Shown here: in pieces, positions 1 through 47,545 of the stretch | Numbering within the stretch: the stretch's first letter is position 1 | How the letters are laid out: each line of letters starts with the position of its first letter | From: an uncultured bacterium | GTDB lineage: Bacteria; Bacillota_I; Bacilli_A; RF39; UBA660 | Assembly: GCA_949292245.1 (NCBI GenBank) | Contig: CASEYV010000002.1 | Location: forward strand, 16,150-80,149 | Direction of reading: 5' to 3' | Length of the DNA: 64,000 nt | Made by a program: the position numbers and the translations under genes | Notes under the pieces: generated by a model | What the model saw: only the letters and a program-made list of their open reading frames with translations | The model's database searches: none | What the model was told of the DNA's origin: nothing

Positions 1-58
1 ACTCCCACCAAAATCAAAACATTTATATATAATAAAATAAAAATACATAATAAAAATT

Positions 59-78
59 TTTTTAGGCATACCTAAAAA
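59..78. promoter_or_regulatory. Palindrome TTTTTAGG-CATA-CCTAAAAA, DtxR/MntR-box-like operator
   Basis: Perfect 8-bp inverted repeat with 4-nt spacer downstream of a TATA-like TTTATATA (22-29); resembles the TTAGG-N-CCTAA core of DtxR-family sites. Confidence 0.4.
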
Positions 79-108
79 TCAATAAAAAAACACATTTTTT
101 AAACGGAA

Positions 109-559
109 TTTACTATAATTCTTTATAAATAAAATCAAAATTTTCACAAAAATTTACTATAACTCTTTATAAATAAAACTCCTATATAACACCGTTATAA
201 ACTACAATTCTTTATAAATAAAAATATATTTTTTAAACGATATATGTTACAATTCTTTATAAATAAAATTTTCATATAACACCGTTATAAACTATAACTC
301 TTTATAAATAAAACTCCTATATAACACCGTTATAAACTACAATTCTTTATAAATAAAAATTAAAATTTCCACAAAAAATTACTATAACTCTTTATAAATA
401 AAACTATATAAAAACGGTGTTCTAAAAAAAAATTTTCAACAAAAAATTACTATAACTCTTTATAAATAAAAATTTATTTTTTTTTAAAATTTACTACAAT
501 TCTTTATAAATAAAATATTATTTTTAAACGGTGTATATTACAACTCTTTATAAATAAAA
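109..559 (+). repeat. Array of 10 copies of (T)TACTAYAAYTCTTTATAAATAAAA, period about 44-46 bp (iteron/terminal-repeat-like)
   Basis: Copies near 109, 153, 201, 247, 291, 336, 379, 447, 491, 538; spacers ~20 nt, AT-rich and partly repeated. Confidence 0.9.
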
Positions 560-560
560 T

Positions 561-1748
561 TCAAAAATCAAACATATCCAAGAAACTATGCCCATCATCT
601 ACCTTAACCTCACAACCCTTCACATCATTCTCATACACTCCACCCAGGAACTCCCTATTAATATTATCTATTTCAAAATCAAACAACGGCACAGAATCAC
701 ACCTAATCTCCCCATCTAACCCACAATAACGGCAAACAATATCTCTAATAGCCTCGAACGGACTTTCATCAAAAACCCACTCTTCCCAACAACGACAAAC
801 TTCCCCAACAACACCCCAAACGAACTCATCAAACACACAACCCTCATTCTTATCAAACCCCCCCCTAACTTCACACCCATTAACCAAATACTCACCACCC
901 TCACCAACACCAAAAACTCCATAACCAAAACTCTCCAACACCCCAACCTCCCCCCTAAACTTCCCAACCTTCAACTTCTTATGACACAAGAACCTCACAT
1001 ACTTATCAAAAAAACTACAAAACACACTAACCAAAAACCCACTCCCAAACTTCCCAGCCACCTTCCTAACCCACGCCCTATCAACCCACCCCACCTCTCC
1101 AACAAACTCAACACTCCCATCACTCCCAATCCTAACACCACTCCCATCACCACTCCAACCCCCTTCTCCAACTCTCCCAACAACTCTCCTCACAACACCC
1201 TCATCAACCCCATACTCCTCCAAATCCCCCATCTTGATAAATTTCCTCTCCCCATCAACCCCAATCAACCTAACAAACCCCTCACCAACCCAATCAACCT
1301 CCCAAATACCACCAAACCCACCACACACAACCTCAAACAACTCAAAATCTCTTCCCAAATACTCATCAACCCTAACACCCACCTCACCAGTCCACTCCCC
1401 ACCAAACTTAACCCATTCACTACTCAACCCACCAATCCTCTCCCAAACCCACCTCAGCACAACCAACCCCCACCTATCAACCAACAACCTCAAAACCTTA
1501 CTCCTAACACCACCCATCTCAACAACCCCAACATCCCTCCTATCAACCAACTCACCAAAATCTTCACACCAAACTTCCTCACCCAGCTCACCCCAAAACC
1601 CATCATCACAATGCACAAACCACTCCTCCCCATCAATTTTAACCCCACCAAAAAACTTCTTACGACTAAAAACAACCCTAACTTCCCCCAACTTCTCCAA
1701 AACCAACACCCAATACCCCCTGTAAAACTGTCCTGCTCTAAAAATCAT
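561..1748 (-). CDS. Hypothetical protein, extremely G/V/W/E-rich due to strand skew
   Basis: 395 open codons; GAGGT RBS upstream of ATG on the minus strand. Confidence 0.7.
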   Translation of the reverse strand: MIFRAGQFYRGYWVLVLEKLGEVRVVFSRKKFFGGVKIDGEEWFVHCDDGFWGELGEEVWCEDFGELVDRRDVGVVEMGGVRSKVLRLLVDRWGLVVLRWVWERIGGLSSEWVKFGGEWTGEVGVRVDEYLGRDFELFEVVCGGFGGIWEVDWVGEGFVRLIGVDGERKFIKMGDLEEYGVDEGVVRRVVGRVGEGGWSGDGSGVRIGSDGSVEFVGEVGWVDRAWVRKVAGKFGSGFLVSVFCSFFDKYVRFLCHKKLKVGKFRGEVGVLESFGYGVFGVGEGGEYLVNGCEVRGGFDKNEGCVFDEFVWGVVGEVCRCWEEWVFDESPFEAIRDIVCRYCGLDGEIRCDSVPLFDFEIDNINREFLGGVYENDVKGCEVKVDDGHSFLDMFDF

Positions 1749-2056
1749 TTCAATACCTCACTAAAAAATCGATATGCAAATCATTACATACCGTAACATT
1801 TTCAACGTCCATTTTCCATATATCCTATTTACTTCCATCTCTATTTAAACGGTATACCAACAAAAAACTTATAAAAACCTATAACAAAAAAAACACAAAT
1901 AAAACGATATACAACAAAAAAACCCAAAAACCACCACCCCCATATATATCCCTAAACACATTTTCCTATTTTTTTATCTCACACACACAAAACGACGTAC
2001 AAAACAAACTTATATATATTCTACTAAACAAATACATCAACTAGGAGTGATAAAAA

Positions 2057-2407
2057 ATGTTAAAAGTATTCATAGCACAACCATTAAAAACAAGCCCACA
2101 AACCCAATCAAACCTAGAAACCCACCTAAAACCACTAGTAGACACCTACCTAAAAAATCAGCCATACACCTTCATCTCACCAGACCCAACAGATGCAATA
2201 TACAAACTACCAATAGACATCTTAGCAGACTACATATACTACATATCACAATCAAACTTAGTAATCTTCCCACTAAACTGGGAAGAATCCAAAGACACCA
2301 TGACCCAAAACATCATATGCAACCTATACAAAGTACCAAACGTAACCGAAGAGGCACTAACCATATCAAACATACTAAATAAAAACGATGTACCAAACCT
2401 AAAATAA
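2057..2407 (+). CDS. Degenerate DUF4406 / nucleoside 2-deoxyribosyltransferase-fold protein
   Basis: KVFIAQP start and SNLVIFPLNWEESK match the family pattern; GGAG RBS. Confidence 0.5.
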   Translation: MLKVFIAQPLKTSPQTQSNLETHLKPLVDTYLKNQPYTFISPDPTDAIYKLPIDILADYIYYISQSNLVIFPLNWEESKDTMTQNIICNLYKVPNVTEEALTISNILNKNDVPNLK

Positions 2408-2500
2408 CCCACCAACCAAAAACCTTATATACCATGAGCCACATATTAACCATTACAAATCAATGTGTGTCTACCAAGAACACATTAAAGGAGGATAATT

Positions 2501-2899
2501 ATGGTAAATATTAGCAAATTTTTTGACTCACACATCATAAACCTAAAAAAAGATAAATTTTGGGGATATGAAGAAAAAGATGACAGCGTCTTAGTAACAT
2601 TCTTCACCAAAAACCACGAACCTATAGACCTACATTTCAGCAAAGATGAATTCCAAAAACTCAAAACATCCATGAGAATAAAAGAACTAAAAGACATGCA
2701 AGAAAGTGGAACCATACCACAAAAAATAAACTACGAAATACTTAACGACGTAATCCTACTAAAACTAGGCAGCAACAACTTTATGGTTCCATTCGACGCA
2801 CTACTAAACCTAATCAAAGACCTACACTCCAAAGGAGAACTAAACATATCAGCACAAATAACAAACGAAGGAACATCAATCAATTTCAATAAAAAATAA
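2501..2899 (+). CDS. Hypothetical protein
   Basis: GGAGG RBS; TATA-like CTTATATA at about 2424-2431. Confidence 0.8.
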   Translation: MVNISKFFDSHIINLKKDKFWGYEEKDDSVLVTFFTKNHEPIDLHFSKDEFQKLKTSMRIKELKDMQESGTIPQKINYEILNDVILLKLGSNNFMVPFDALLNLIKDLHSKGELNISAQITNEGTSINFNKK

Positions 2900-4068
2900 A
2901 ACGATATATGGAGAAAAAAGTATGATAAGAGTATTTGAAGCGTTTGCGGGTTATGGTAGTCAAAGAATGGCATTGCGTAACATCGGAATTGAATTTGAGG
3001 TAGTTGGTATCTCAGAGATAGAGGGCGATGTTATTCAATCATATGCTGCGATTCATAGTGATTTTTTGGAAAAAAGGGAACATATTGATAGCTATGTGCC
3101 TGAAGACAAAGAAGAAATGATTTCTTATTTGGAAGAAATTAATGTTCCATTAGATTACAAAACTTTTGAAAACAAGGCTAAAAAGCTTAGACTGCCAAAA
3201 TTAAAAGATATGTACTTAGCAAACAAACTGATTAACAATTATGGAGATATACAAAGAATAAATCCTACAACTTTACCTGATTTTGATTTGTTCACATACT
3301 CATTCCCTTGTCAGGATATATCTGTAGCGGGATATCAGTGCGGATTAAATGAGGATTCTGGAACCAGGTCATCATTACTGTGGGAATGCTGTAAGATTAT
3401 TGAAACTAAAAGACCCAAATATCTGATGATGGAAAACGTTAAAAATCTTGTTGGGAAAAATCATAAAGATAATTTTTTGAAATTTTTAGATTATCTTGAA
3501 AGTTTAGGTTATAAAAACAGCTGGGCTGTTTTAAATGCCAGGGATTATGGTGTTCCTCAAAATAGGGAACGAGTTTTCTGTATCAGCGAGCTTGAAAGCA
3601 AAAGAGATTTTGTTTTTCCAGAACCGACAGAATTGAAATTCAAACTTGATGATATTCTTGAGAAAGATGTCGATGAAAGATATTATCTGAACAATGGTCA
3701 AGTTATGGATAAACCTATTAAGCAGGAGTATAGCTATTGTTTGGACTCCAATTACTGGAAAGGCACCACACTTCAAAGTTTTTTAAAAAAGCATAGAAGA
3801 CAGCTTGTAACTGACAGGGTCAATGAATCTGGGCAATATGTACCAAGAAGGCTTACTCCAAAAGAAACATGGAGGCTGATGGGTGTTAATGATGAAGATA
3901 TTGAAAAAGCAAGCCAGTTGGTAAGCAACACAAGTCTTTATAAACAATCTGGAAACAGTATTGTTGTTCCAGTTCTTGAAGCTATATTCAAACAATGGTT
4001 TATTGAGATGCATTATATGATGAATCTATAGATATTTTAAATGCTATTAAAAAATAAAACGATATATG
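2890..4068 (+). repeat. Perfect 21-bp direct repeat TAAAAAATAAAACGATATATG (2890-2910 and 4048-4068) flanking the first C5 methyltransferase
   Basis: Direct comparison of both copies. Confidence 0.9.
2922..4031 (+). CDS. dcm: DNA (cytosine-5) methyltransferase, orphan
   Basis: Motifs FAGYG, FPCQ, MENV, PQNRER, QSGNS. Confidence 0.95.
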   Translation: MIRVFEAFAGYGSQRMALRNIGIEFEVVGISEIEGDVIQSYAAIHSDFLEKREHIDSYVPEDKEEMISYLEEINVPLDYKTFENKAKKLRLPKLKDMYLANKLINNYGDIQRINPTTLPDFDLFTYSFPCQDISVAGYQCGLNEDSGTRSSLLWECCKIIETKRPKYLMMENVKNLVGKNHKDNFLKFLDYLESLGYKNSWAVLNARDYGVPQNRERVFCISELESKRDFVFPEPTELKFKLDDILEKDVDERYYLNNGQVMDKPIKQEYSYCLDSNYWKGTTLQSFLKKHRRQLVTDRVNESGQYVPRRLTPKETWRLMGVNDEDIEKASQLVSNTSLYKQSGNSIVVPVLEAIFKQWFIEMHYMMNL

Positions 4069-4083
4069 AAAAAAAGTGATACC

Positions 4084-4395
4084 ATGACTAACCTAACTCA
4101 ACTAATACTAATATTCGAGGAAAAGTACGATGCAGAATGGACCGACAACATACAATACAGCTACTCACACGAATCATCAGAAATAGACTTCATCATACCC
4201 ATAGAATCAATACCAAACCTACTAACAGACATCAGCAAAATCAAAACCACATCAATGTTCGAAATAAATAAAACAATAATAAAATGCATATACGAAGAAG
4301 AGGAATACTATATATCAATAGACATAAGTACAATAAAAAAACTCTTAAACGATATACAAAAACAAACCTTTATATGTGGAGGAAAAAATGACTAA
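4084..4395 (+). CDS. Hypothetical protein
   Basis: ORF in array; start after AGTGA RBS-like site. Confidence 0.7.
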   Translation: MTNLTQLILIFEEKYDAEWTDNIQYSYSHESSEIDFIIPIESIPNLLTDISKIKTTSMFEINKTIIKCIYEEEEYYISIDISTIKKLLNDIQKQTFICGGKND

Positions 4396-4564
4396 AACAA
4401 ACACCAACCACTTTTGGATTTACGAAAGAATAAAAGAAATAGATGAAGAAATAGCTCAAAAGAGGAAAGAAAAAGCATTCCTAGAATCTCTATTACAAAA
4501 AGATTCTCCATGCATATTCAAATCAAAAACTTCAGATACATTATTTTTTAACAAAAACTATTAA
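4388..4564 (+). CDS. Small hypothetical protein
   Basis: GGAGG RBS; overlaps upstream stop. Confidence 0.65.
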   Translation: MTKTNTNHFWIYERIKEIDEEIAQKRKEKAFLESLLQKDSPCIFKSKTSDTLFFNKNY

Positions 4565-4592
4565 ACGATATATAAGAAAGGAGAATAATAGA

Positions 4593-4907
4593 ATGGAAAA
4601 ATTAAACAATAAAAACGGACCACTTCAAGTCCGTAAAATAGTATTAACAGGAAAATACTTTCCTATGGATAAATCAGACTCCAAAGAATATATCTATATA
4701 TCCATAGATTCAAGCCAATCTTTAACAAAAGTGTTATCAAATAAATTAGAAGAAACATGGCAAGAATTAGGTGTAAACAAAAACCCAAAAGAAATTATAG
4801 AATCAGATGAGTTTATAAAAAAATTAGAAGAAAACAATATTTATTATATGGACAGCAAATATATGGATTTCCAAAAATTATATATATTTGCCTTATATAA
4901 AAAATAA
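4593..4907 (+). CDS. Hypothetical protein, paralog domain A
   Basis: YIYIS...EETWQELG...FIKKLEENNIYY matches the C-terminus of 4928..5443. Confidence 0.75.
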   Translation: MEKLNNKNGPLQVRKIVLTGKYFPMDKSDSKEYIYISIDSSQSLTKVLSNKLEETWQELGVNKNPKEIIESDEFIKKLEENNIYYMDSKYMDFQKLYIFALYKK

Positions 4908-4927
4908 ACGATATATGGAGAAAAAAA

Positions 4928-5443
4928 ATGGAAAAAATAGAAGAAAAAATAAATCAAAGTACAAAAATTTTAAACGATATTCATGGACAAATTCACACAT
5001 CACTACAAGATATATACAGAGAATTCCATACTTATAGCCCAAAAGGTTTAGATAAAGAAATATCTCGTATAAATGAATTAACAAAAGCATTAAAAGAAGA
5101 AGAATCTAACTTAAGAGAATTAGAAAAGAAAAACAAACAAATTCAAGCCTACACCATAACACTTGACTACGGAGGAGTCAATATGGCAAGTCCAAGCACA
5201 TTTATAGACTACCTTTACATATCAACCAATTCAGACCAAGACCTAGAAGAAGTATTATTTGAAGAAATAGAAGAAGTATGGAAGGAATTAGGCGAAGACA
5301 ACTCTATAACAACAGTTCTTCAATCATGTAACTTCATACAAAAATTAGAAGACAAAAATATTTACTATATAAACGATGAATACATAAACCTCAAAAAAAA
5401 GGGCATATACGGCAACATCACCTACAAAAATTATAAAAATTAA
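4928..5443 (+). CDS. Coiled-coil plus domain A protein
   Basis: Junction motif and GGAG RBS; paralogy with 4593. Confidence 0.75.
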   Translation: MEKIEEKINQSTKILNDIHGQIHTSLQDIYREFHTYSPKGLDKEISRINELTKALKEEESNLRELEKKNKQIQAYTITLDYGGVNMASPSTFIDYLYISTNSDQDLEEVLFEEIEEVWKELGEDNSITTVLQSCNFIQKLEDKNIYYINDEYINLKKKGIYGNITYKNYKN

Positions 5444-5465
5444 ACGATATACAGGAGCAAAAAAA

Positions 5466-6014
5466 ATGAACAGATTAATAATAAAACACCTACTCAATTC
5501 AATTTTAAAAGACAAACTAAACCAACCTACCAACGGACCAACTCCACAAACTAGAATAATTGATGATAAATATGTATTTATAGAAACAAAACAACCACTA
5601 ACAACGGAAGCAATATCCTGTATCCAAAAAGGCTTACTTCACTCACAATTTGTCGCATCAAATACAGACAACACCGTTGCAGTCTTCAAACTAACCGAAC
5701 CAGAATATTATGTGATACAACACATAAAACTAACAATAGACCTAATACAAAAAGAAACCAACACCCTAAACCCAGAACTCCCAAGAGTAGCTGGATACCT
5801 TCAAAACATTGGGTTCAAACTCAAATACTACTACAAAGGCGAGGAATACGAACCAACCATAGAAGTTTTAATACCCAAAGACACTCCAACAGAAGAAAAA
5901 AACTCAATGCACGAAACTCTCTTTAAAACAGTAGATGAATTCGCATCAAGATACAACATAAGCGAAGAATTTCTACAAAATCTACATATATTTTTAACAA
6001 GAGAAAAACAATAA
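5466..6014 (+). CDS. Hypothetical protein, domains B+C
   Basis: N half similar to 13104; C half similar to the 9402 C-terminus. Confidence 0.75.
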   Translation: MNRLIIKHLLNSILKDKLNQPTNGPTPQTRIIDDKYVFIETKQPLTTEAISCIQKGLLHSQFVASNTDNTVAVFKLTEPEYYVIQHIKLTIDLIQKETNTLNPELPRVAGYLQNIGFKLKYYYKGEEYEPTIEVLIPKDTPTEEKNSMHETLFKTVDEFASRYNISEEFLQNLHIFLTREKQ

Positions 6015-6035
6015 AACGATATATGGAGCCATAAA

Positions 6036-6332
6036 ATGATATATTCAATTAAATATACAAGAGGAATCGATGATTATTATCTTTATTTTTACCATCCATC
6101 TAACAATCACGAAGACTGTAAAAAAGCACTCAAAGATGTATGCCATCATATATGTGAAACCCAACAAATAAACAAAGAAACTCAAAACCCATACACATTC
6201 ATATCTGACAACACCAAACTTATAAAAAACGAAATGGCAAAAAGAGGATTCGAACCATTATCCGTAACAGAGATAGCCGAGTTCTCCGATGAGGACCCAC
6301 TATCCGAATCCTTCCAATACAATAATATATAA
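6036..6332 (+). CDS. Hypothetical protein, divergent domain A
   Basis: Junction motif and GGAG RBS. Confidence 0.7.
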   Translation: MIYSIKYTRGIDDYYLYFYHPSNNHEDCKKALKDVCHHICETQQINKETQNPYTFISDNTKLIKNEMAKRGFEPLSVTEIAEFSDEDPLSESFQYNNI

Positions 6333-8198
6333 AAACGATATATAGGTGAAAAATATGTCAAACTCATTAATAGAAGAATTGCCTAAAATTATAAGAAAAG
6401 GCAGGAAAGAAGCAAATAAAATATTAGAAGGTTTATCCGAAGATAGCAGATTAACTTTACAGACAAATGAACTAGTTTTGCCATCTAAAGATGAGGCAGG
6501 ATATTTTGTAAATTCAAATGAAAAAGTATTAGATAGTCAAAAAGCTAATAAATTGATTTATGGTGATAATTTATTTATTATGCAAACTTTATTAACAGGT
6601 GATGAAACAACTCCATCCATGAAAGGAAAAATTGATTTAATATATATTGACCCACCTTTTGATTCTAAAACAGATTATAAAATCAAAACTAAATTAAAAG
6701 ACACTACTATAGAACAATTTGCATATTCTGATACTTGGAAAAAAGGGACTATAAGCTATTTGGAAATGATGGTTCCACGTTTAATTTTAATGAAGGAATT
6801 GCTATCTGAAAATGGAACTATTTATGTTCATATTGATTGGCATGTAGGACACTATGTAAAAATTATGATGGATGAAATCTTTGGAAGAGATAACCTTATG
6901 AATGAAATTGTTTGGTGCTATAAATCAGGTGGAGCTTCTACAGCTAAAGGATTTGCAAAGAAGCATGATGTTATTTATGCATATAATAAGTCAAATAATT
7001 TTATTTTCAACAATATTAAAGAAAAATCTTATATGGGTATAGGATATACTACTGGAAACAAAAATGTTACATTATATGATGATAATGACGGCAAAGGCCC
7101 ATATACATTAGTGAATGTTAAAGATTGGTGGACAGATATTGGAATGATTGCAACATCTAAGGGAAGGCTTTATGCTACTCAAAAACCAAAAGAGCTTCTA
7201 GAAAGAATTATCTCAGTTTCATCAAATGAAAATTCAATAGTTGCAGACTTTTTCTGTGGTTCAGGTACAACTGGTGCTGTTGCTGAAAAATTAGGCAGAA
7301 GATGGATAATGTCTGATTTAGGAAAACCTGCCTGTATGGTTACTAAAAAAAGATTAATAGACCAAAAATCCATTCCTTTTCTATATCAATCAATTAGAAA
7401 TTATCAAAAGGAACAATTCAAACAATCAGAATTTAAAACCATCAGCGACTTATCTCATGCTGTTATGAATTTATATGGAGCCACACCATTTAATGATAAT
7501 GATAACTTAGGTTACATAAAAGATTCAAAAACTTTAGTTTATGTTGATTTTCTTTCTAAATTAACTAGTCATAATACATTAATTAAAGCACAAAAATTAA
7601 GAAATACATATAAAGGGGGGTGGAATAAAGTAGTTATATTGGGGTGGAATTTCGTTCAGGATATTAGTCAAATTATTATTGATTTAAATGATTCTAATCT
7701 TGAAGTTTTAGCTATACCACATAATTTATTAGAACAACTTAAAATAAAATCTAAAACTAATAAATTAATAAAATCTGGCAATTTAAGACTTTCATCTCTA
7801 CAACATCTAACTGTTAAAAAACCGACAATCGAAAATTATAATGAAGAATTAGAAACTTTAACAGTTGAATTAGATAATTATGTTTTATTATCTCCTGAAG
7901 CTTTACCATTAAATAAAAAAAATAAAGAGAAAATATCCGAAATAATAGATAACGACCCATTATCTTTAATTGAATATTGGAGTATTGACCCAGATTATGA
8001 TGGAAAAATATTCCGTAGCAGATGGCAAAATTATCGTGGAAACATTGCAAATGATAATCCTTATAAAGTTACTAAATATGTAAAAATTAATGTTCCTAAA
8101 CTCAATAGAAATAGAGTAATCTGTGTAAAAACAGTTGATATATTTGGGTTTGAAAATACTATTACAATAAAAATAAAATAAAAACGATATATAGGTGA
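6329..8198 (+). repeat. Perfect 21-bp direct repeat ATAAAAACGATATATAGGTGA (6329-6349 and 8178-8198) flanking the Mod-like methyltransferase
   Basis: Direct comparison of both copies. Confidence 0.9.
6355..8181 (+). CDS. mod: Type III Mod-like beta-class N6-adenine (or N4-cytosine) DNA methyltransferase; no Res partner seen
   Basis: LIYGDN, YIDPPF, TQKP, DFFCGSGTT; long C-terminal extension. Confidence 0.9.
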   Translation: MSNSLIEELPKIIRKGRKEANKILEGLSEDSRLTLQTNELVLPSKDEAGYFVNSNEKVLDSQKANKLIYGDNLFIMQTLLTGDETTPSMKGKIDLIYIDPPFDSKTDYKIKTKLKDTTIEQFAYSDTWKKGTISYLEMMVPRLILMKELLSENGTIYVHIDWHVGHYVKIMMDEIFGRDNLMNEIVWCYKSGGASTAKGFAKKHDVIYAYNKSNNFIFNNIKEKSYMGIGYTTGNKNVTLYDDNDGKGPYTLVNVKDWWTDIGMIATSKGRLYATQKPKELLERIISVSSNENSIVADFFCGSGTTGAVAEKLGRRWIMSDLGKPACMVTKKRLIDQKSIPFLYQSIRNYQKEQFKQSEFKTISDLSHAVMNLYGATPFNDNDNLGYIKDSKTLVYVDFLSKLTSHNTLIKAQKLRNTYKGGWNKVVILGWNFVQDISQIIIDLNDSNLEVLAIPHNLLEQLKIKSKTNKLIKSGNLRLSSLQHLTVKKPTIENYNEELETLTVELDNYVLLSPEALPLNKKNKEKISEIIDNDPLSLIEYWSIDPDYDGKIFRSRWQNYRGNIANDNPYKVTKYVKINVPKLNRNRVICVKTVDIFGFENTITIKIK

Positions 8199-8199
8199 T

Positions 8200-8970
8200 T
8201 TGATGATTAAAATGAACAACCATGAAGTTATCAACAGATTCAGGAAAGCAACAGAAAGAGAAATAGAAGCATTAGAAGAAGATTACCAAAACACAGAAGA
8301 CATAACAGAAAAAGAAAACCTTGCAAAGAATATTGCAAACTGTTATGCAAAACTACAACAATACAACGGAGTAGAGAAAAAAATTGGAGATGATTTCAGC
8401 TTAATTCCTGAAATACCTGAAGAAGTAATTGCAAGTATGGATAGAATTCAAAGTATGATTGACTATGCACTATTTATGTGTGAAAAATATAAAGATTCAG
8501 ACTGTAAACTTGACATAAGAGAATTTGATAAGAACTTATGCAAAATCTACAATAGCATAACATTACCTTATCATTTCGAATACAAAGCAATGATTCATTT
8601 ATTAAGTGAAGAAATGGGTCATTCAATATTCAATGACAAATATGCAGATTTAATGCATCAACCTGAATACCTTTTAACCTATGCATACTTAATAGATAAT
8701 GAATTATTTGATATTTCCTATGAGAGTATTGAAAATGAATTAGATAAGATTATTTATGTTCCTGATATGATATGCTTTATTACATATACATCACAATACA
8801 TCGGCACAGAATATGAAAATATATTTTGGAATAAGAAATTCGATGACCTATCAGATGAACAATGGATTGAACAGTTAATTAAGCAAGGAATTGTGTGGAC
8901 AAACGATGAAAATCTTGGTTATATTATTAACCAAGACTTTTTAGATTTGGAGGATGAAGATGATGTTTAA
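8200..8970 (+). CDS. Hypothetical acidic protein
   Basis: 256-aa ORF after junction motif with GGTGA RBS. Confidence 0.8.
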   Translation: MMIKMNNHEVINRFRKATEREIEALEEDYQNTEDITEKENLAKNIANCYAKLQQYNGVEKKIGDDFSLIPEIPEEVIASMDRIQSMIDYALFMCEKYKDSDCKLDIREFDKNLCKIYNSITLPYHFEYKAMIHLLSEEMGHSIFNDKYADLMHQPEYLLTYAYLIDNELFDISYESIENELDKIIYVPDMICFITYTSQYIGTEYENIFWNKKFDDLSDEQWIEQLIKQGIVWTNDENLGYIINQDFLDLEDEDDV

Positions 8971-9118
8971 AATTGAAGAAACTTTTAATGGATATGCGAT
9001 TATGTACGATGATGAAATAGTATTCAAACTTGAAGGAGTAATGAATACTAAGGCTACTGCCGATAGGATTGTGAAGAAACTTAATGAGGCGATTAAAGAT
9101 GATGAAGAAGTTTATTAA
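8963..9118 (+). CDS. Small hypothetical protein (51 aa)
   Basis: GGAGG RBS; MFKIEETFNGY...; overlaps upstream stop. Confidence 0.55.
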   Translation: MFKIEETFNGYAIMYDDEIVFKLEGVMNTKATADRIVKKLNEAIKDDEEVY

Positions 9119-9173: not shown

Positions 9174-9389
9174 GTGATAATTATGAACAAACATCAAGAA
9201 AAATTAGAAAATGCAAAAAAAGAAATAATAGATATGCTTAAAGATATTATAGAAAATCATTCAAGTTATAGTCATATAGCTATGCTGTCAAAATTAAATA
9301 CTCTAAATGAATACATAGATAAGCATTATAAAGAAACATATATTGACTATTTAATAGTTGAATCTCTTAATAAAGATTTAAATAAATAA
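9174..9389 (+). CDS. Hypothetical protein
   Basis: Junction motif plus GGTGA RBS. Confidence 0.7.
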   Translation: MIIMNKHQEKLENAKKEIIDMLKDIIENHSSYSHIAMLSKLNTLNEYIDKHYKETYIDYLIVESLNKDLNK

Positions 9390-9401: not shown

Positions 9402-9947
9402 ATGTTTATATTGGAATTTTACGACTGGGATTTCATGTATAACTACTACATAGAATCAGAGAAACCTATAACAAAAATTGAATTTAAAGAAAAACTTCTA
9501 AAAGTATTCGAAGATATGACAGAAAATGATTCTGATGAAATATGGGAAGCTTTACCAGCTTATTTTCATTCTTCAGAAGAATGCAGTAAATTTAAAAAAG
9601 CCTTAAAAAAACAAGGACTATACCTATTAGATGATATAATAAAAGCAAGCATCCACGAATATACAACATTATCATCCTATAAAACAAAACTTAAAAACGA
9701 TATTATATTAGAAAAAATAACCAACGAACTTTCCAAACATGGCTATAACTCATCTTACAACTACAATAATTGTGATGAAATTAACTATCAAGAACCACAC
9801 CTATACATTTCAGTAGAAACCATAACAGACAAAAACCATTACAACGAAATAACAAACAAAGTAACAGACACCGTTTATAATTTTTGTCAAAAAGAAAATA
9901 TCATAGACTTTTTCGGCACATTAGAAATACACATAACCTTAAATTAA
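9402..9947 (+). CDS. Hypothetical protein, domains A+C
   Basis: Paralogy with the 12212 N-terminus and the 5466 C-terminus. Confidence 0.75.
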   Translation: MFILEFYDWDFMYNYYIESEKPITKIEFKEKLLKVFEDMTENDSDEIWEALPAYFHSSEECSKFKKALKKQGLYLLDDIIKASIHEYTTLSSYKTKLKNDIILEKITNELSKHGYNSSYNYNNCDEINYQEPHLYISVETITDKNHYNEITNKVTDTVYNFCQKENIIDFFGTLEIHITLN

Positions 9948-9970
9948 ACGATATATAGGAGGCATACAAT

Positions 9971-10363
9971 ATGATATTTAAATTTAGTATCTGTGATTAC
10001 GAAGGAAGCGACAATTTGTACTTCGACGTAGATAACAACCTAACAAGAGAAGAAATAATTGAAAAAATTCATGAAGCATTGAGAAATCATGTCAAAAACG
10101 AATTAGATGAGGATAGCAAAAGACCTATAGGAAAAAAAATTTATTGTACAGAAACAAAAGGTATTGAATCCTTTGGTGGTTCTAAAAAATTAAATAAAGA
10201 ATTTGAGAAAGTAGGATTAAAAAAAATTAAAATACCTACCTATAACATATGGTACGATGAAGATGCCTACACTCTCTTAGGAATAGATACAAAATGTAGA
10301 GGACCTGAAAACTGTCAAAAAGTATGGTGTGATAAGGTACACGAATGGAAAAAAAATAAATAA
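9971..10363 (+). CDS. Hypothetical protein, domain A with Cys-rich tail
   Basis: Junction motif plus GGAGG RBS. Confidence 0.75.
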   Translation: MIFKFSICDYEGSDNLYFDVDNNLTREEIIEKIHEALRNHVKNELDEDSKRPIGKKIYCTETKGIESFGGSKKLNKEFEKVGLKKIKIPTYNIWYDEDAYTLLGIDTKCRGPENCQKVWCDKVHEWKKNK

Positions 10364-10374
10364 GAGGTATAAAA

Positions 10375-10584
10375 ATGAAAATAGATGAAAAAGTATTAGA
10401 TGTAATTGCTATAGATATAAACCAAAGATACGAAGAAAACGAAACAAATCCCCCAGATAATATAAATGAGTATATCAATATAACAACTCGCCTTGAAGGA
10501 AGATTAGATATTATAGATTTTCTAAAAGGCATATTAAAAGATGATAAAGATATAATAAAATATTTAAATTCTATAATGGAATAG
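10375..10584 (+). CDS. Hypothetical protein
   Basis: GAGGT RBS. Confidence 0.7.
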   Translation: MKIDEKVLDVIAIDINQRYEENETNPPDNINEYINITTRLEGRLDIIDFLKGILKDDKDIIKYLNSIME

Positions 10585-10589
10585 ATATT

Positions 10590-10754
10590 ATGACAAAAGA
10601 TATTAAAATATTAGAGGACCATATTTACACACTTTTAACGGAATTATATAAAAATTTCTATAAAATGGAAACAGATGAAGCACACTATCTAATGAAAACA
10701 ATCGAATACCAAATGGATATACTCGAAAAAATAAAATATGGAGAATCAATATAA
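10590..10754 (+). CDS. Small hypothetical protein
   Basis: 54-codon ORF filling the gap in the operon. Confidence 0.5.
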   Translation: MTKDIKILEDHIYTLLTELYKNFYKMETDEAHYLMKTIEYQMDILEKIKYGESI

Positions 10755-10782
10755 TATTAAACGGTATATAGGAGATTCAAAA

Positions 10783-11223
10783 ATGAAAATAACAGGCGAA
10801 ATACTACAGAAAATAGAAAATAAGCTATGGGAGAAATTGAAAAATTTAAATAAAAATGAAAAACAATTAATAGAAGATAGAAGTATATCATATTTCAGTA
10901 TGAGTGAATTTGCTGATGCTTATGGATGTATCTACTGTATAAATTACTTACAAGAATTAAAGGAAATAATTAATGATAATGAAGGTTATATCAGACACTA
11001 TGGCTTAGAAGAGTTCAAAACAAAAAACAAAGCAGAAGTATACGGAACAAAAGAAGCAATAAAAACTCTTAAAGCTGAATATCAAAACAAATTAAATGAA
11101 TTACTCGCAGAATCTATACCTAACAACGGAGGATTATATGCAATAGAGTTATTCTCAACTGCACACTATCTTGAATCAGGAATAGACACTCTAAATGCCT
11201 TAGAAGAAAGATTAGAAGATTAA
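10783..11223 (+). CDS. Hypothetical protein
   Basis: Start after junction motif TAAACGGTATATAGGAG. Confidence 0.75.
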   Translation: MKITGEILQKIENKLWEKLKNLNKNEKQLIEDRSISYFSMSEFADAYGCIYCINYLQELKEIINDNEGYIRHYGLEEFKTKNKAEVYGTKEAIKTLKAEYQNKLNELLAESIPNNGGLYAIELFSTAHYLESGIDTLNALEERLED

Positions 11224-11252
11224 TAAAATAAAACGGTGTATAGGTAAAAATT

Positions 11253-12194
11253 ATGAATAATTCTTTAAAAAAACCTAAACTTAAATTAATGCCAGTTGGA
11301 GAAGTTAAATATAAACAAAAAGACTTTTTGAAATGTCCTTTTAATTATATTGGTGGAAAACATAAAATACTCCCCCAATTATTTACTGCATTTCCAGAAA
11401 ACAATGATATTTTCCTAGACATGTTTGGTGGAGGATTCAATGTTGGAATTAACAGCAATGCTTCTAAAATCATCTATAATGACCAATTAACTCCTTTAGT
11501 TGAATTATTTAAATATCTTCAAGACAATTCATGCGAGGATATTATAAATTATATTGAAACCACAATTAAAGATAACAATATTAGAAAAGATGAAAAAGAA
11601 GGGTTTCTTCAATTTAGGAATCAATACAATCAATCTGAAGAAAAATTCCCTTTAGATTTATACGTATTAGTTTCATTCTCATTTAATTATCAATTCAGAT
11701 TCAATAATAGTGGTGAATACAATAGTTCACATGGAACTAACCGTAGTTCTTTTACAAAGAACATGAAAGAACGATTAATACAATATATCAATATTATTCA
11801 TGAAAAAGATATAATATTTTTAAATAAAGATTTTACACAGTTAGATTATTCTATTTTAACTGAAGATAGCTTTGTTTATTGCGACCCTCCTTATTTGATA
11901 ACTACAGGTTCATATAATGATGGTAATAGAGGTTTCAAAAACTGGACCATAAAAGAAGAAAAAAATTTATTGAAATTATTATCAAAACTTGATAAAAAAG
12001 GAATTGATTTTGCATTATCTAATGTAACTATTCATGATGGAAAACAAAATGATTTATTACTTGATTGGATTGAAGCAAATGAATTTACTGCATTAGATAT
12101 TAATTCAGATTATAGCAACTCTAATTATCATAAAAAAAATAAAGATAAAGAAAAAAATACAGAAGTATTAGTAATTAATTATTCTTTTAAATGA
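11253..12194 (+). CDS. Dam/D12-class N6-adenine DNA methyltransferase, orphan
   Basis: PFNYIGGK, DMFGGG, YCDPPY, ALSN, EVLVINY. Confidence 0.92.
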   Translation: MNNSLKKPKLKLMPVGEVKYKQKDFLKCPFNYIGGKHKILPQLFTAFPENNDIFLDMFGGGFNVGINSNASKIIYNDQLTPLVELFKYLQDNSCEDIINYIETTIKDNNIRKDEKEGFLQFRNQYNQSEEKFPLDLYVLVSFSFNYQFRFNNSGEYNSSHGTNRSSFTKNMKERLIQYINIIHEKDIIFLNKDFTQLDYSILTEDSFVYCDPPYLITTGSYNDGNRGFKNWTIKEEKNLLKLLSKLDKKGIDFALSNVTIHDGKQNDLLLDWIEANEFTALDINSDYSNSNYHKKNKDKEKNTEVLVINYSFK

Positions 12195-12211
12195 TTTATT
12201 AAGGTGATTAA

Positions 12212-12787
12212 ATGATGTACGAATTAATACTTAAAGACTATAATGAATATGATGAGGAATCCTTTTTTTATGAGTCAGAGATAGAATATAATTCAGAAGA
12301 GTTTTTTAATATAATTTTAGAAGCAATTCATACTGTATCCGAAATAATGGAATCAAATAGTAAATCAATAACAGGTAAACCATATAACATATACAACATC
12401 GTTGTAAGTAAAGAATTCTCTGAAGAATTAAAAAAATACGATATACATATCATAAATTTTCAAACTCACGAATTAAACAATTCATTTGATTCAGTAGAAA
12501 AGGTTTTAAAAAAATACAAATATGTTAATAAAAAAGAAATCATTAAAACAATCACTAATTTATTTAAAAAAACAAAAAATGAACCACATATGGGCGGAAA
12601 ACTTATATCATCTAAAATCTTCGGCAACTACATTCTAATAGAAGCCGAAAAAACAATGGATACAAATATGATTAATACAATAAAAGAAACTTTAAATAAT
12701 ATAAACGATATAAATAAAGTTCACTTAACAGGTTCAAATAAAAATATGAGTTTGTTAATATACGAAATGGAATTTTATTATGAATAA
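12212..12787 (+). CDS. Hypothetical protein, domains A+B
   Basis: GGTGA RBS; paralogy with 9402 and 13104. Confidence 0.75.
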   Translation: MMYELILKDYNEYDEESFFYESEIEYNSEEFFNIILEAIHTVSEIMESNSKSITGKPYNIYNIVVSKEFSEELKKYDIHIINFQTHELNNSFDSVEKVLKKYKYVNKKEIIKTITNLFKKTKNEPHMGGKLISSKIFGNYILIEAEKTMDTNMINTIKETLNNINDINKVHLTGSNKNMSLLIYEMEFYYE

Positions 12788-13134
12788 AAATGAAATAGAA
12801 TTAAAAATTAATTGAATAAGTAGATGAATGAGGATTGATAAAATGGAAAAAGAAAATATACCATACATTATAGCAATATTTATTGTTATATTATTAGTTA
12901 TAATTATAGAATATTATTTATATTTATTTATATCACAGATGACTATTATTAACGATGCAACAGATTTTTATTTTGCCATGCAAAATTATGGTTTATTGTT
13001 ATTCCCAATGTTTATAGGGGCTGGGGTAATATGTTTTATTAGAAGGCTTATAGAAGAATAAGGTGAAATATGAACCTGTTAATATACAAAATGGAATTTT
13101 ATTATGAATAAAAATGGAATAGAATTTAAAATTA
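12742..13134 (+). repeat. 69-bp direct repeat (12742-12810 and 13066-13134; 6 mismatches) flanking a small membrane gene
   Basis: Direct alignment. Confidence 0.9.
12828..13061 (+). CDS. Small two-TM membrane protein
   Basis: Two hydrophobic stretches. Confidence 0.7.
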   Translation: MRIDKMEKENIPYIIAIFIVILLVIIIEYYLYLFISQMTIINDATDFYFAMQNYGLLLFPMFIGAGVICFIRRLIEE

Positions 13135-13355
13135 GAACGATATTTGAATTAGCAAATGGACAAGTAGGAATGGGCCAAGGACTCAAAGACATAAAATTCA
13201 TCAACAACGACTACATCTTAATAGAGTCAAATCATCCAATGAATGCAAGAATGATAACCCTCTTAATGAAAAACCTACACGAATCCATTAACGCAGATAT
13301 AATAACTAGCTTTCGAAAAAACACCGTTTTAATATTAAAATTAAACGATATATGA
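13104..13355 (+). CDS. Hypothetical protein, stand-alone domain B
   Basis: YILIES/YILIEA/YVFIET pattern shared with 12212 and 5466. Confidence 0.7.
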   Translation: MNKNGIEFKIRTIFELANGQVGMGQGLKDIKFINNDYILIESNHPMNARMITLLMKNLHESINADIITSFRKNTVLILKLNDI

Positions 13356-13363
13356 GGAAAAAA

Positions 13364-13972
13364 ATGACTGTAATATTAGCATCTAAAGATTTATCAAACG
13401 ATAGTATATATATAGGTTCAGACCTACTTAGCAGTACCGAATACAACGTCTACAAAAAAACTAAAATCATCAAAAAAGAAGATAAAGATGGAAACCTTAT
13501 AGTTTTTGCTGTAGCTGGATACACATGGCTAGTTGACTACATTAAAAATTATGACCTAAAAATAATAAACGATGTATCCCATTCCCCATACAACTATATC
13601 AAAAAAGTATTATTTTGTATGTACGATGATTTATTAGAAAATGCACTAATCCCAATCTATGATGAGGAAAAAGACACTTGCTCCAATATAATCATAATAT
13701 ATAAAAACAACATCTACAGTATACAAAGCAACTTTGCCATATTAGAAGAAGACAACTATGAAGTCATCGGAAGTGGATACCCAACAGCTACTGGAGCATT
13801 TTTAGCATCAAAAATGGCAGGGCTCTCCATCAAAAAATCAATAGAGTCAGCACTTAAAATAACCATAGACAACAACAAAAGCTGTGGATTAGGATACGAA
13901 ATCTACAAAATAAAAAATAACGAAATAAAACTAATAAAATCAAAAGAACAATACATGGGGGTAATAAATTGA
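13364..13972 (+). CDS. Ntn-hydrolase, HslV / proteasome beta-subunit-like peptidase
   Basis: N-terminal M-T-V, IGSD, AVAG and IGSG motifs. Confidence 0.75.
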   Translation: MTVILASKDLSNDSIYIGSDLLSSTEYNVYKKTKIIKKEDKDGNLIVFAVAGYTWLVDYIKNYDLKIINDVSHSPYNYIKKVLFCMYDDLLENALIPIYDEEKDTCSNIIIIYKNNIYSIQSNFAILEEDNYEVIGSGYPTATGAFLASKMAGLSIKKSIESALKITIDNNKSCGLGYEIYKIKNNEIKLIKSKEQYMGVIN

Positions 13973-15887: not shown

Positions 15888-16191
15888 AAGAGATATACAA
15901 ATGATAGCACAACATTTAACGATGTTAAATATAATGTATACTGATGAAGAAATAGCATATTTAAGAAAATTAAAAGAAGTATTACCACTATCAATATACG
16001 AAATAGTTGATACTATAGATTTACAGAACGATGGTTTTTTTGATGATATTACAGTAGTAATACAAATTCCATATCACTATGGAGAATATGCAAAAGCAAT
16101 ACTAAAAGATTACAACCCTATTATAAATTATGAAGATTATGGTATAGAATTTCATATTCCAATAATGAATATTAAAGGTGATACAGAGTGA
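15880..16191 (+). CDS. Hypothetical protein
   Basis: Overlapping operon ORF. Confidence 0.65.
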   Translation: MLERDIQMIAQHLTMLNIMYTDEEIAYLRKLKEVLPLSIYEIVDTIDLQNDGFFDDITVVIQIPYHYGEYAKAILKDYNPIINYEDYGIEFHIPIMNIKGDTE

Positions 16192-17234
16192 TAAATGGAA
16201 TTTCATTGTTTGCTAATGTTGGAATAGCTGAAACATACTTTAAAGAAAACGGCATCAATATCGTTGTAGCTAATGAATTATTGGTCGAAAGATGTAGAAT
16301 TTACAAACATATATATCCAAGTTGTGATATTATATGTGGTGATATATCTGAAAATACTATTTTTAATAAACTTGTTGAGTTATATAATTTAAACGAATGT
16401 GATTTTTTAATTGCAACTCCACCATGTCAGGGCATGAGCCAAGCTGGAAAAATGGACCCTGATGACCCAAGAAATTCATTAATAATTCATACAATAGAGT
16501 TCATTAAAAAAACACAACCATCAAACATCATAATAGAAAACGTTCCACAAATTCTCAAATTCTCAATAAAAATAAACGATGTTGAAAAAAAAATTTTAGA
16601 CTACATCGTTGAAGAATTAGAACCATTAGGATACAACATAAATTACGATGTATTAAATGCTGCCGACTACAACACTCCACAAAATAGAAAAAGAGCCATC
16701 TTTCTCATATCAAAAATTTCTAAATGGGAATTCCCAGAAAAACAACCTGAAATAACAGTAAGAGAAGCTATAGGAAACCTTCCATCATTAGAAAGCGGAG
16801 AGGTATCTAATATTCCACGTCATTATGCTAAAAACCATGCAAAAAGACATATAGTATGGATGAAATACACTCCAACTGGAAAAACTGCCTTCGATAACGA
16901 AATATATTATCCACAAAAAGATGGCAGAAAAATTAAAGGATATAGAACAACATATAAAAGAATGGAATGGGATAAACCAGCACCAACAATAACAATGTGT
17001 AATGGTTCAATCTCATCACAAAACAATGTACATCCTGGTTATAAATTAAATGATGGAACTTACTCAGATGCAAGAGTTCTATCAATATTAGAACTATTAA
17101 GACTAACAGGACTTCCAGATGACTGGAACTACCCAGAAAATATATCAGATAACTTATTAAGAAAAATCATCGGAGAAGGCTTTCCACCCCATTTCGCAGC
17201 ATCTTTATTAAAAACAATGCCAATAACCAATTAG
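16188..17234 (+). CDS. dcm: Second DNA (cytosine-5) methyltransferase, orphan
   Basis: SLFANVG, TPPCQ, IENV, PQNRKR, IGEGFPP. Confidence 0.93.
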   Translation: MINGISLFANVGIAETYFKENGINIVVANELLVERCRIYKHIYPSCDIICGDISENTIFNKLVELYNLNECDFLIATPPCQGMSQAGKMDPDDPRNSLIIHTIEFIKKTQPSNIIIENVPQILKFSIKINDVEKKILDYIVEELEPLGYNINYDVLNAADYNTPQNRKRAIFLISKISKWEFPEKQPEITVREAIGNLPSLESGEVSNIPRHYAKNHAKRHIVWMKYTPTGKTAFDNEIYYPQKDGRKIKGYRTTYKRMEWDKPAPTITMCNGSISSQNNVHPGYKLNDGTYSDARVLSILELLRLTGLPDDWNYPENISDNLLRKIIGEGFPPHFAASLLKTMPITN

Positions 17235-17245
17235 GTCGTGATAGA

Positions 17246-17542
17246 ATGACTAAATTATCATTTAAAGAAAAAGAAAAAATTCAAATCAAATTACAAAGAA
17301 TTAATAAACAATTAAACGATATTGTTGAAAATATTGAGGCTATGTACATTCTAATAAACCCAGAAGACCCACTTGAAACTTCAATATTAAATCCAGAACA
17401 TCCATTTTCTGGATGGTTAGAAAAGATAGTAAACGGCACATTAAAAGATGCCAAGAAACTTCAAAAGGAAACTAAAAAACTTCAAAAACAAGTTAAAGTT
17501 AAAAAAATTAAAAAAGATAAAAAAATAGAACAAGACATATAG
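17246..17542 (+). CDS. Hypothetical coiled-coil protein
   Basis: 98-aa ORF. Confidence 0.7.
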   Translation: MTKLSFKEKEKIQIKLQRINKQLNDIVENIEAMYILINPEDPLETSILNPEHPFSGWLEKIVNGTLKDAKKLQKETKKLQKQVKVKKIKKDKKIEQDI

Positions 17543-31589: not shown

Positions 31590-31644
31590 AGTTATATATA
31601 TATTTTTTTATATATAATTAATATTAAAAATTTTGAGGAATAGA

Positions 31645-46953: not shown

Positions 46954-47449
46954 TATTATGAAAAATAAAAAAACAAAGTATGGTAGAGTTGGGATTTCTC
47001 CCGATGGATATTATATTGTTACTTCAGTAAAAGAAGGGAATTGTCAAAAGCTTTTGCATAGATTAATATATGAAGAAGAATTTGGCAAAATTCCCGATGG
47101 GTATCATATTCATCATAAAGATGGGAATAAATTGAATAATAATATTGATAACTTAGAATGTTTATCTCCATCAAATCATGGTAAAACCCATAAACATAGT
47201 ATAGAAACACGTCATAATCTTAGTAAAATGAAGACTGGAACATCACGTCCTACTAATTCAACTGGATATTATAGAGTTTTTACAGAAAAAGATAAAAAAT
47301 ACAAACAAGGATTTTGTTATGTTTATGAGGTTGATACATCTAGACTAGATGGAAAAAGAAAAAAAAAGAAAATCAGAAGAGTTAATTTATCTGATTTAGA
47401 GAAAGCTGTTAAAGAAGCAGGATATGAGTGGAAAAAGATTGATGAATAA
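46937..47449 (+). mobile_element. HNH homing endonuclease with C-terminal AP2-like module
   Basis: LHRLIY, IHHKDGNKLNNNIDNLECL, H. Confidence 0.85.
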
Positions 47450-47545
47450 TTAAACATTGAAGCTTATGCTTCGTCTTTTTTTTTATTTTTTAGAGCCTCA
47501 AACAAAAAGTTTAAATAGTATAACAGCCATATTATACTATGGTGT

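Follow-up and report, generated by a model that had tools for sequence, protein, structure and literature searches.

A mitochondrion-like, local strand asymmetry in the early-gene region of a putative tailed virus of Methanobrevibacter

Asymmetry of base composition between the two strands of DNA is known, and the closest described counterpart of the locus presented here is mitochondrial DNA. According to PMC3269014, the mitochondrial H strand is GT-rich owing to deamination of A and C while single-stranded, and proteins encoded on the keto (G+T) strand gain Gly, Val, Phe, Cys, and Glu, those on the amino (A+C) strand Thr, Pro, Ile, and Lys. Bacterial chromosomes and plasmids carry a skew between leading and lagging strands, keto bases being in excess on whichever strand is single-stranded more of the time. 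The first-entering DNA of phages T7 and T5 is site-poor, and immunoglobulin switch regions are GC-skewed regions prone to R-loops. Here we describe a stretch of 64,000 nucleotides (nt), referred to below as the window (contig CASEYV010000002.1, positions 16,150 to 80,149, of assembly GCA_949292245.1), which from its gene content we conclude to derive, in all probability, from a large, previously undescribed tailed virus of Methanobrevibacter. Close to its start, beside a direct-repeat array, lies a domain in which one strand approaches an A/C alphabet and the other a G/T alphabet, with its peak at ORF395, an open reading frame (ORF) of 395 codons on the minus strand (561..1748) that encodes a conserved orphan protein. 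Of a local domain this strong, in a double-stranded DNA (dsDNA) virus of an archaeon and reshaping a conserved protein family, we found no description for any phage or archaeal virus in the open-access literature searched (including PMC13465236).

The original prediction had reported about 8 G in 660 nt of the plus strand at 1021..1680, and exactly 8 were counted (at 1057, 1075, 1236, 1390, 1457, 1586, 1613, and 1664); over the whole of 561..1748, the plus strand comprises A428 C515 G28 T217. G per 300 nt averages 42.2 across the 64-kb window (standard deviation, 12.4; minimum, 1), and all 300-nt segments with 12 G or fewer fall within 1..2048, with nothing comparable in the rest of the 64 kb. 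The GC skew gave the same picture, with -0.77 at 1..1000, -0.91 at 1001..2000, and values mostly within about ±0.3 past 6 kb of the window, as did the A+C fraction of the plus strand, which is 0.78 to 0.85 at 751..1750 and averages 0.508 past 9 kb (standard deviation, 0.048; maximum, 0.66). GC skew and AT skew share their polarity at 751..1750, as in the mitochondrial type. Since our codon-position analysis revealed T at the free sites of the plus strand to be depleted as strongly as G, the feature is an asymmetry of amino against keto bases and not a G deficit alone. At unconstrained sites, A and C make up nearly all of the plus strand and G and T nearly all of the minus strand, and the GC content rises in the skewed region.

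The skew was strongest at four-fold degenerate sites, whichever the direction of the gene, the domain containing one minus-strand gene. Read on their own coding strands, the four-fold sites of 12 ordinary genes of the window are A35-62 C4-10 G1-5 T29-60 (percentages, here and below), typically about A42 C6 G4 T48. Those of ORF395 are A6 C0 G38 T56 on its coding strand (n = 144), or A56 C38 G0 T6 viewed from the plus strand, which bears out the earlier impression of a minus strand on which A>G and C>T had run to saturation. On the plus strand, the gene at 2057..2407 has A80 C20 G0 T0 (n = 46) and the gene at 2501..2899 has A74 C18 G0 T8 (n = 39). The five to six small orphan genes on the plus strand at 4066..6332 are intermediate, the five with at least 98 amino acids (aa) having A54-70 C17-29 G0-4 T7-24 and a doubtful 62-aa ORF at 4376..4564 having A53 C7 G7 T33 (n = 15).

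Noncoding DNA is affected as well. The divergent intergenic region at 1749..2056 is A45 C24 G4 T26, compared with A41 C10 G11 T38 for intergenic DNA past 14 kb, and the one at 2408..2500 (A42 C25 G11 T23) is shifted in the same sense as the genes. In the 116-aa gene at 2057..2407, T is reduced to 3% at codon position 3 and stands at 20% and 32% at positions 1 and 2, like ordinary genes. The effect ranks from four-fold sites over intergenic DNA to codon positions 1 and 2, and it therefore has the profile of a pressure opposed by constraint alone. The 28 G that remain on the plus strand of 1..560 plus 1749..2056 sit mostly in a recurrent CG-containing motif, a hairpin, or ribosome-binding sites. 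Translational codon selection was ruled out as a cause, the effect being complementary on the two strands and present in noncoding DNA.

The composition of ORF395 itself follows the keto strand. Its coding strand is G43 T36 A18 C2, and its codon choices are correspondingly extreme: TTG 20 against TTA 1, AGG 21 against AGA 5, AAG 16 against AAA 2, GAG 33 against GAA 10, AGT 14 against TCN 1, and GGC, GTC, and GAC not used at all. The predicted protein is acidic (isoelectric point, 4.6), has 13 Cys, and consists of G17 V16 E11 F9 D8 R7 W4 C3, with K5 N1 I3, in contrast to the K7-11 N7-12 I7-12 of ordinary genes in the window; K, N, and I together make up 8.9%, and R, D, and V make up 30.9%. The description of this gene as rich in G, V, W, E, and R in place of K, N, and I was thus accurate. 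Eight codons made only of G and T (for F, L, C, W, V, and G) account for 55% of the residues, and A, P, T, H, and Q, the residues with C-requiring codons, for 11 of 395 (2.8%). Almost half of the C in the gene (13 of 28) is obligatory, belonging to A, P, T, H, or Q codons, and five of these C-requiring residues (A5, Q7, H256, P330, and A333) are invariant in all five sequences of the family.

The genes encoded on the amino strand mirror these shifts. The 116-aa orphan gene at 2057..2407 specifies a protein with zero Gly and zero Arg and with P9 T9 Q5 N9 I10, the reverse image of the changes in ORF395; its AlphaFold2 model, with a mean predicted local distance difference test (pLDDT) score of 47.5, was too poor for a fold search. 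A 132-aa orphan gene with the four-fold skew given above (2501..2899) follows. The skewed plus-strand genes all share one orientation, and the effect weakens with distance. Its polarity is wrong for transcription of the plus-strand genes, and transcription-associated mutagenesis was ruled out on that ground. Two of the small intermediate genes, 4593..4907 and 4928..5443, are paralogs (36% identity over 101 residues); the paralog search within the window returned only three pairs, none usable for polarizing substitutions. Tandem paralogs were also seen at 31633..32835 and 32850..34403 (38% identity over 325 residues).

The original prediction had the skew continue as C- and A-ending codons in the plus-strand genes and fade over several kilobases. 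The first part is well supported: the A+C fraction at position 3, viewed on the plus strand, is 0.91 in ORF395 and 0.92 and 0.83 in the two plus-strand genes that follow. As to the second, the envelope does fall, from 0.92 to about 0.5 over some 14 to 17 kb, without forming a smooth gradient, as it is a mosaic in which unskewed genes break the series. The gene of a C5 cytosine DNA methyltransferase (0.43) comes directly after the first two plus-strand genes, the next six genes reach 0.83, 0.69, 0.70, 0.75, 0.81, and 0.70, an N6/N4 methyltransferase gene drops to 0.50, and 0.56, 0.51, 0.70, 0.63, 0.62, and 0.65 come next. In the tail of the domain (9402..13972), most small genes of the plus strand have 0.60 to 0.73, interspersed with a D12-class adenine methyltransferase gene at 11253..12194 (0.50) and a 77-aa ORF at 12828..13061 (0.47); from the former onward the values are 0.50, 0.60, 0.47, 0.73, and 0.73, ending at 13972. 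Past 14.2 kb, they lie mostly at about 0.36 to 0.56, with two genes at 16188..17542 at 0.65 to 0.66.

Composition this extreme raises the question of an artefact of assembly or chemical conversion, or of a single hypermutation event in this genome, and the relatives of the skewed proteins bear on it directly. For ORF395, an HMMER scan of 1.84 billion representatives was combined with a word-indexed search; the former returned one cluster (50% identity) and the latter returned four, at 91, 82, 79, and 58% identity, from two public sources. In these relatives, A, P, T, H, and Q make up 2.0 to 3.4% of the residues and those with G/T-only codons make up 52.7 to 57.0%. The 116-aa protein has five related clusters at 74 to 94% identity, all of them Gly-free, one of which sits on a 119-kb contig. 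The earlier account had named a shared composition of homologs elsewhere as grounds for refuting it; the four relatives of ORF395 and five of the 116-aa protein do share it, and the skew is therefore neither an artefact nor the product of recent or targeted hypermutation of this genome. By the testimony of these proteins, it is an inherited, maintained state of the virus lineage. Nine independent protein clusters at 58 to 94% identity, from two public sources, one of them on the 119-kb contig, together with a frame of ORF395 that is intact in all five sequences, with in-frame indels only, leave an artefact scarcely credible, even though the relatives lie mostly on short contigs (0.7 to 10.9 kb), which could hint at difficult assembly near the array. 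The rise in GC content is likewise unlike C-to-T conversion, and bisulfite-like conversion was ruled out on that account. Targeted hypermutation, which the original prediction had offered as one option, lacks in addition a template and an enzyme: no repeat of 561..1748 was found elsewhere in the window and no reverse-transcriptase domain was found in the scanned ORFs, and a diversity-generating retroelement or other templated hypermutation was rejected on these grounds and on the shared composition of the relatives.

The short contigs were seen for eight of the nine related clusters, and assemblies seem to be interrupted close to this region, perhaps at the repeat array or a genome end. Searches by tblastn of ORF395 against phage and plasmid collections gave no match, and a profile search of a genome-contig collection for it gave 189 pattern matches, 0 of them confirmed. 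No domain of this kind is present in BK063677, a distant Methanobacteriales virus (first 50 kb of 53.2 kb), whose A+C fraction per 500 nt runs from 0.354 to 0.648. The directional substitutions that the original prediction had expected from an alignment of homologs could be followed at the protein level, with inferred codons: with the 58% relative as the outgroup, changes in the ORF395 protein amounted to A>G 15 against G>A 5, a leaning in the direction expected, on a count of 36 single-step columns, 10 multistep columns having been excluded.

Within the domain, the gene of the C5 cytosine methyltransferase (2922..4031, plus strand) forms an unskewed island. Over 98% of its length, the enzyme matches a protein labeled Methanobrevibacter woesei with 100% identity, and it is 93 to 95% identical to copies named M. 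smithii or located on contigs of up to 1.79 Mb; copies in gut bacteria (Firmicutes, Veillonella, Melainabacteria, and others) are 66 to 84% identical. The one copy retrieved in Methanobrevibacter DNA (4001..5086 in one of 33 loci) is frameshifted and 86.6% identical. The complete identity to the M. woesei protein serves as a pointer to the host and to recent capture, and four-fold G in the gene (13%) is foreign even to this virus. From these comparisons, we conclude that the methyltransferase gene was probably exchanged with the host very recently.

These observations are, in our view, best accounted for by a long-standing, strand-specific mutation pressure from amino to keto bases on the minus strand, similar to that on the mitochondrial heavy strand, an explanation that we favor tentatively, with a confidence slightly short of even. 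Mutation pressure is the most economical account because of the ranking of effects, the retention of C only where it is needed, the independence of gene orientation, and the immunity of a fresh gene. In this scenario, the minus strand would have been driven to, and held at, a mutational equilibrium that purges amino bases, by C>T and A>G on that strand or, equivalently, G>A and T>C on the plus strand, with deamination of a repeatedly single-stranded minus strand as the source. Purifying selection would keep the genes open and functional, while free sites (four-fold, two-fold, and tolerant amino acid positions) would go to completion. On the keto strand, ORF395 would thereby accumulate F, G, V, W, E, and R; the plus-strand genes, on the amino strand, would drop Gly and Arg in exchange for more P, T, Q, and N; and newly arrived genes, such as the host-derived C5 methyltransferase gene, would still be unreshaped. 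That mutation and not selection is at work, that the strand is single-stranded, and which process exposes it are all points that we infer.

The geometry places limits on the exposing process. An exposed minus strand would have its 3' end toward the array, immediately to the right of which the peak is found. This would fit a gap on the lagging-strand template behind a leftward fork moving into the array, or a 3' tail resected from an end or a break. A rightward fork leaving the array would not fit, and the polarity of the skew accordingly seems to count against a fork of that kind starting there.

Several points weigh against mutation pressure. First, the fade is a mosaic, with unskewed genes at 6346..8181, 9174..9389, 11253..12194, and 12828..13061; recent arrival is seen for one unskewed gene, and the others, of ordinary viral composition, would have to have moved in as well. 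Second, the array adjoins the peak yet bears only half of the signature, with G down, T at 36%, and C at 13%, so that strong constraint on the repeats or their homogenization would be required. Third, orientation independence rests on little, namely, one minus-strand gene plus the noncoding DNA. Fourth, template uracil is reported to stall archaeal polymerases of families B and D, and hypoxanthine those of family B as well (PMC2794169 and PMC3627576); fixing deaminations would need a replicase without a check for uracil and hypoxanthine, and no polymerase was identified in the window. Fifth, the evidence on substitutions is a protein-level count with inferred codons and not a DNA spectrum. Finally, the lineage of the captured methyltransferase gene has A>G 12, T>C 11, G>A 3, and C>T 2, with no G>A drift of the domain type, in a comparison (35 polarized sites on the lineage, 147 differences) whose power is low since the capture is very recent.

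The original prediction had ORF395 staying open behind a ribosome-binding site, and all 395 codons are indeed open, with a Shine-Dalgarno-like GTGAGGT 6 nt upstream of the ATG; given the composition of the strand, a stop is expected about every 14 codons, and a frame of 395 codons would stay open with a probability of 5e-13. In the family alignment, 211 of 414 columns are invariant, with 12 to 30 invariant residues per 40. An open frame combined with uneven conservation therefore marks a selected protein and no by-product. The protein has no match in profile searches of Pfam, PHROGs, NCBIfam, or PDB and no recognizable initiator domain in the domain and PDB profile searches; a protein atlas gave no usable match and a low recognition score, and the AlphaFold2 model (mean pLDDT, 36.5) was too poor for a fold search. 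Just before the ribosome-binding site, the minus strand holds a 10-pair hairpin followed by the T-run ATTTTTT (1793 to 1770), which takes up three of the few G remaining on the plus strand and may be an attenuator or terminator ahead of ORF395.

The isolation of ORF395 gives some room to the idea that selection acts on the plus-strand RNA, keeping transcripts G-poor, U-poor at free sites, and unfoldable, for early translation or escape from RNases. ORF395 would then live antisense to such a transcript, was perhaps born there, and would have a complementary composition by necessity. A skew that varies gene by gene would suit this idea, as would a protein with no relatives beyond its own clade, no family or structure match, a poor structure prediction and atlas score, and more than half of its residues from the eight G/T-only codons. 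In addition, the plus-oriented early-gene motif AAACGRYRT, described below, occurs in the array upstream of the ORF395 antisense (exact at 235, 412, and 526, with AAACG at 101). We nevertheless consider selection on RNA improbable: nontranscribed or regulatory intergenic DNA is skewed too, ORF395 is itself a selected protein, and the transcripts in question are deduced from sequence alone. A plus-strand ORF of 271 codons at 981..1796 has no ribosome-binding site, and its length is about what chance would give on a G-less strand that TAA alone can stop.

The array at 1..560 consists of 10 exact copies of a 14-nt core at a spacing of 44 to 45 bp, with one gap of 68, and the core is found nowhere else in the window. 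Its plus strand is AT-rich and G-poor (A48 C13 G3 T36), and the 15 G left in it belong mostly to CG-containing motifs of the AAACG(G/A) or CACCGT type. Seven columns vary in the 12 nt before the core, three as C/T, three as A/T, and one as A/G, which we count on the side of mutation pressure. Within the core, the palindromic TTTATAAA resembles an archaeal TATA box. Candidate roles for the array are those of an origin, terminus or barrier, partition site, or cluster of factor-binding sites. No Rfam match was obtained in 1..9000 and no tRNAs were detected; blastn of 1..8000 returned segments of methyltransferases only, apart from a pair of short matches to the array region (466..538). Already in its first 40 nt, the window is C-rich and G-poor, resembling part of another skewed gene. 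The domain probably extends leftward past the window start, which shows no evident sign of being a genome end.

The motif AAACGRYRT (mostly AAACGATAT) occurs 81 times in the window against an expectation of 2.4, for example, at 2899, 4057, 4563, 4906, 5442, 6014, 6333, and 8182. Its orientation mostly matches that of the genes, and nearly every early-region gene has a copy ending a few bases ahead of its ribosome-binding site; three plus-oriented copies (1847, 1902, and 1990) lie in the divergent region at 1749..2056, and an exact copy is absent upstream of ORF395. The early genes likely have in this motif a promoter-proximal or leader element. A scan for sigma-70 promoters found 4 sites, compared with 8.6 in shuffled sequences.

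The scarcity of palindromes at the peak introduces a further explanation. ORF395 has 10.9 four-base and 2.5 six-base palindromes per kb, against about 70 to 90 and 16 to 26 in the rest of the window, a seven-fold scarcity. DNA of two letters, with A and C on one strand and G and T on the other, would have no palindromes or hairpins and few recognition words, and selection for it could cloak the first-acting DNA from restriction and structure-specific host nucleases, leaving it nearly invisible until protective functions are made, at the price of reduced amino acid alphabets in its proteins. It is conceivable, though we hold it to be unlikely, that the virus deliberately keeps its early region two-lettered in this way, as a generic cloak against host defenses or, with either strand free of structure once unwound, as an ideal single-strand substrate. 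The setting would be apt: the domain belongs to the early genes, at least four DNA methyltransferases are encoded nearby, the skewed plus-strand genes are co-oriented and less affected with distance, and the state has been kept in relatives down to 58% identity. As in the first-entering DNA of T7 and T5, an early region with few recognition sites stands before or among anti-restriction functions.

What makes selection for two-letter DNA a doubtful account is that no region-specific depletion of palindromes beyond composition was found. Palindromes in ORF395 number 13 against 19.3 in synonymous shuffles (P = 0.02), a deficit no stronger than in ordinary genes, such as the helicase gene (130 against 154.6; P = 0.000) and the adenine methyltransferase gene (133 against 148.3; P = 0.034), and the 116-aa gene, with 18 against 20.1 expected, shows none. 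At 561..2900, TGCA (5), ACGT (4), CTAG (4), CATG (4), TCGA (3), GTAC (3), and AGCT (1) all occur, and G-containing palindromes appear wherever G survives. The plus-strand genes keep 18 to 20% T and 51 four-base palindromes per kb, and little stealth is gained. Driving about 100% of the synonymous sites would need effective selection on every single site. Unlike in T7 and T5, where particular sites are lacking, the whole alphabet is reduced here, and the first 40 nt of the window look like part of another skewed gene.

The direction of ORF395 transcription, which heads toward the array, also brings up a selected zone of R-loops or G-quadruplexes, in which the G-rich ORF395 RNA would hybridize to the C-rich plus strand beside the array, for instance, to prime replication, in resemblance to ColE1 or the mitochondrial control region. 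The nontemplate strand of ORF395 is 43% G and 2% C, and, as at R-loop-prone CpG-island promoters, it is G-rich downstream of its promoter; for human genes, R-loops are reported to go with a strong GC skew on the downstream side of promoters (PMC3787257). A zone of this kind is highly improbable, though. G clusters are at expectation, with 59 runs of three or more G against 54.5 to 58.1 expected and 1 canonical quadruplex motif against 1.4 to 1.8, and the nontemplate strand is G-rich for ORF395 only. The neighboring plus-strand genes are transcribed in the opposite direction and yet have the same DNA-strand skew, with a C-rich nontemplate strand, for which an R-loop from the ORF395 transcript, one form of the R-loop that the original prediction placed next to the array, cannot account. 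Moreover, the A-to-G shift at synonymous sites reaches many kilobases past any one transcript.

Returning to mutation pressure, the likeness to animal mitochondrial DNA (PMC3269014) is close. A+C predominates on one strand and G+T on the other, most strongly at synonymous sites; a single opposite-strand gene, nad6 there and ORF395 here, has the mirror composition; and the amino acid shifts, with G, V, F, C, W, and E up on the keto strand and T, P, I, K, N, and Q on the amino strand, match those of mitochondria. The mitochondrion-like signature claimed in the original prediction thus stands as regards composition and amino acids. In contrast to mitochondrial DNA, the asymmetry is local here (about 14 kb of a genome of at least 119 kb) and a mosaic by gene, it is found in a tailed dsDNA virus of an archaeon, and at its peak 0 of 46 four-fold sites have G and 0 of 46 have T; strand-displacement replication is not known for this virus. 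Compared with the leading/lagging skew of bacterial chromosomes and plasmids, with which it would share a keto excess on the strand more often single-stranded, it is far larger, is confined to one region, and has no sign change across the array in the visible DNA.

The identity of the element rests on its genes. The window encodes a baseplate protein, a DinG-type helicase, an SbcD-like nuclease, a clamp-like protein, NrdD with an activase-like radical-SAM protein, a dCTP-deaminase/dUTPase-like protein, HNH and GIY-YIG endonucleases, and at least four DNA methyltransferases, and its first 14 kb or so are the early-gene region of the virus. Most of its large proteins are without a family match. 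The best match of the helicase in a phage collection is to a Methanobacteriales virus, at 31% identity, and proteins of 917 and 763 aa have no match in that collection. Besides the island gene, the early region carries methyltransferase genes at 6346..8181 (N6/N4), 11253..12194 (D12 adenine), and 16188..17234 (a second C5 enzyme); the two C5 enzymes are 36% identical over 125 residues.

Farther along, the dCTP-deaminase/dUTPase-like gene (43532..44275) adjoins that of NrdD (44272..46305), followed by genes for the small activase-like radical-SAM protein (46306..46953), the HNH endonuclease (46937..47449), and a B12-binding radical-SAM protein (48706..49806). The genes of 43532..49806 look like a module that reshapes the nucleotide pool and possibly modifies DNA. 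The GIY-YIG gene, which is homing-endonuclease-like (58325..59137), is inserted between genes at 54510..58328 (1,272 aa) and 59234..60259 (341 aa), neither of which has a family match.

If the asymmetry is mutational, it would be a sign, legible in sequence, of a tailed archaeal virus in which a defined region has one of its strands exposed for long stretches of time, and asymmetric or arrested replication, or processing of an end, would be indicated beside the repeat array. A mutational cause would also raise the question of how deaminated bases become fixed despite host polymerases that are reported to stall at them, and it would offer a natural experiment on how far mutation pressure can rewrite functional proteins. 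If selection is responsible, the domain would represent a new anti-defense strategy that works through the DNA alphabet itself. Either way, the ORF395 family provides rare natural examples of conserved proteins almost without five amino acids, which are relevant to protein evolution and to reduced alphabets, and they belong to a large, undescribed virus lineage that is tied to Methanobrevibacter by a methyltransferase identical to a host-labeled one.

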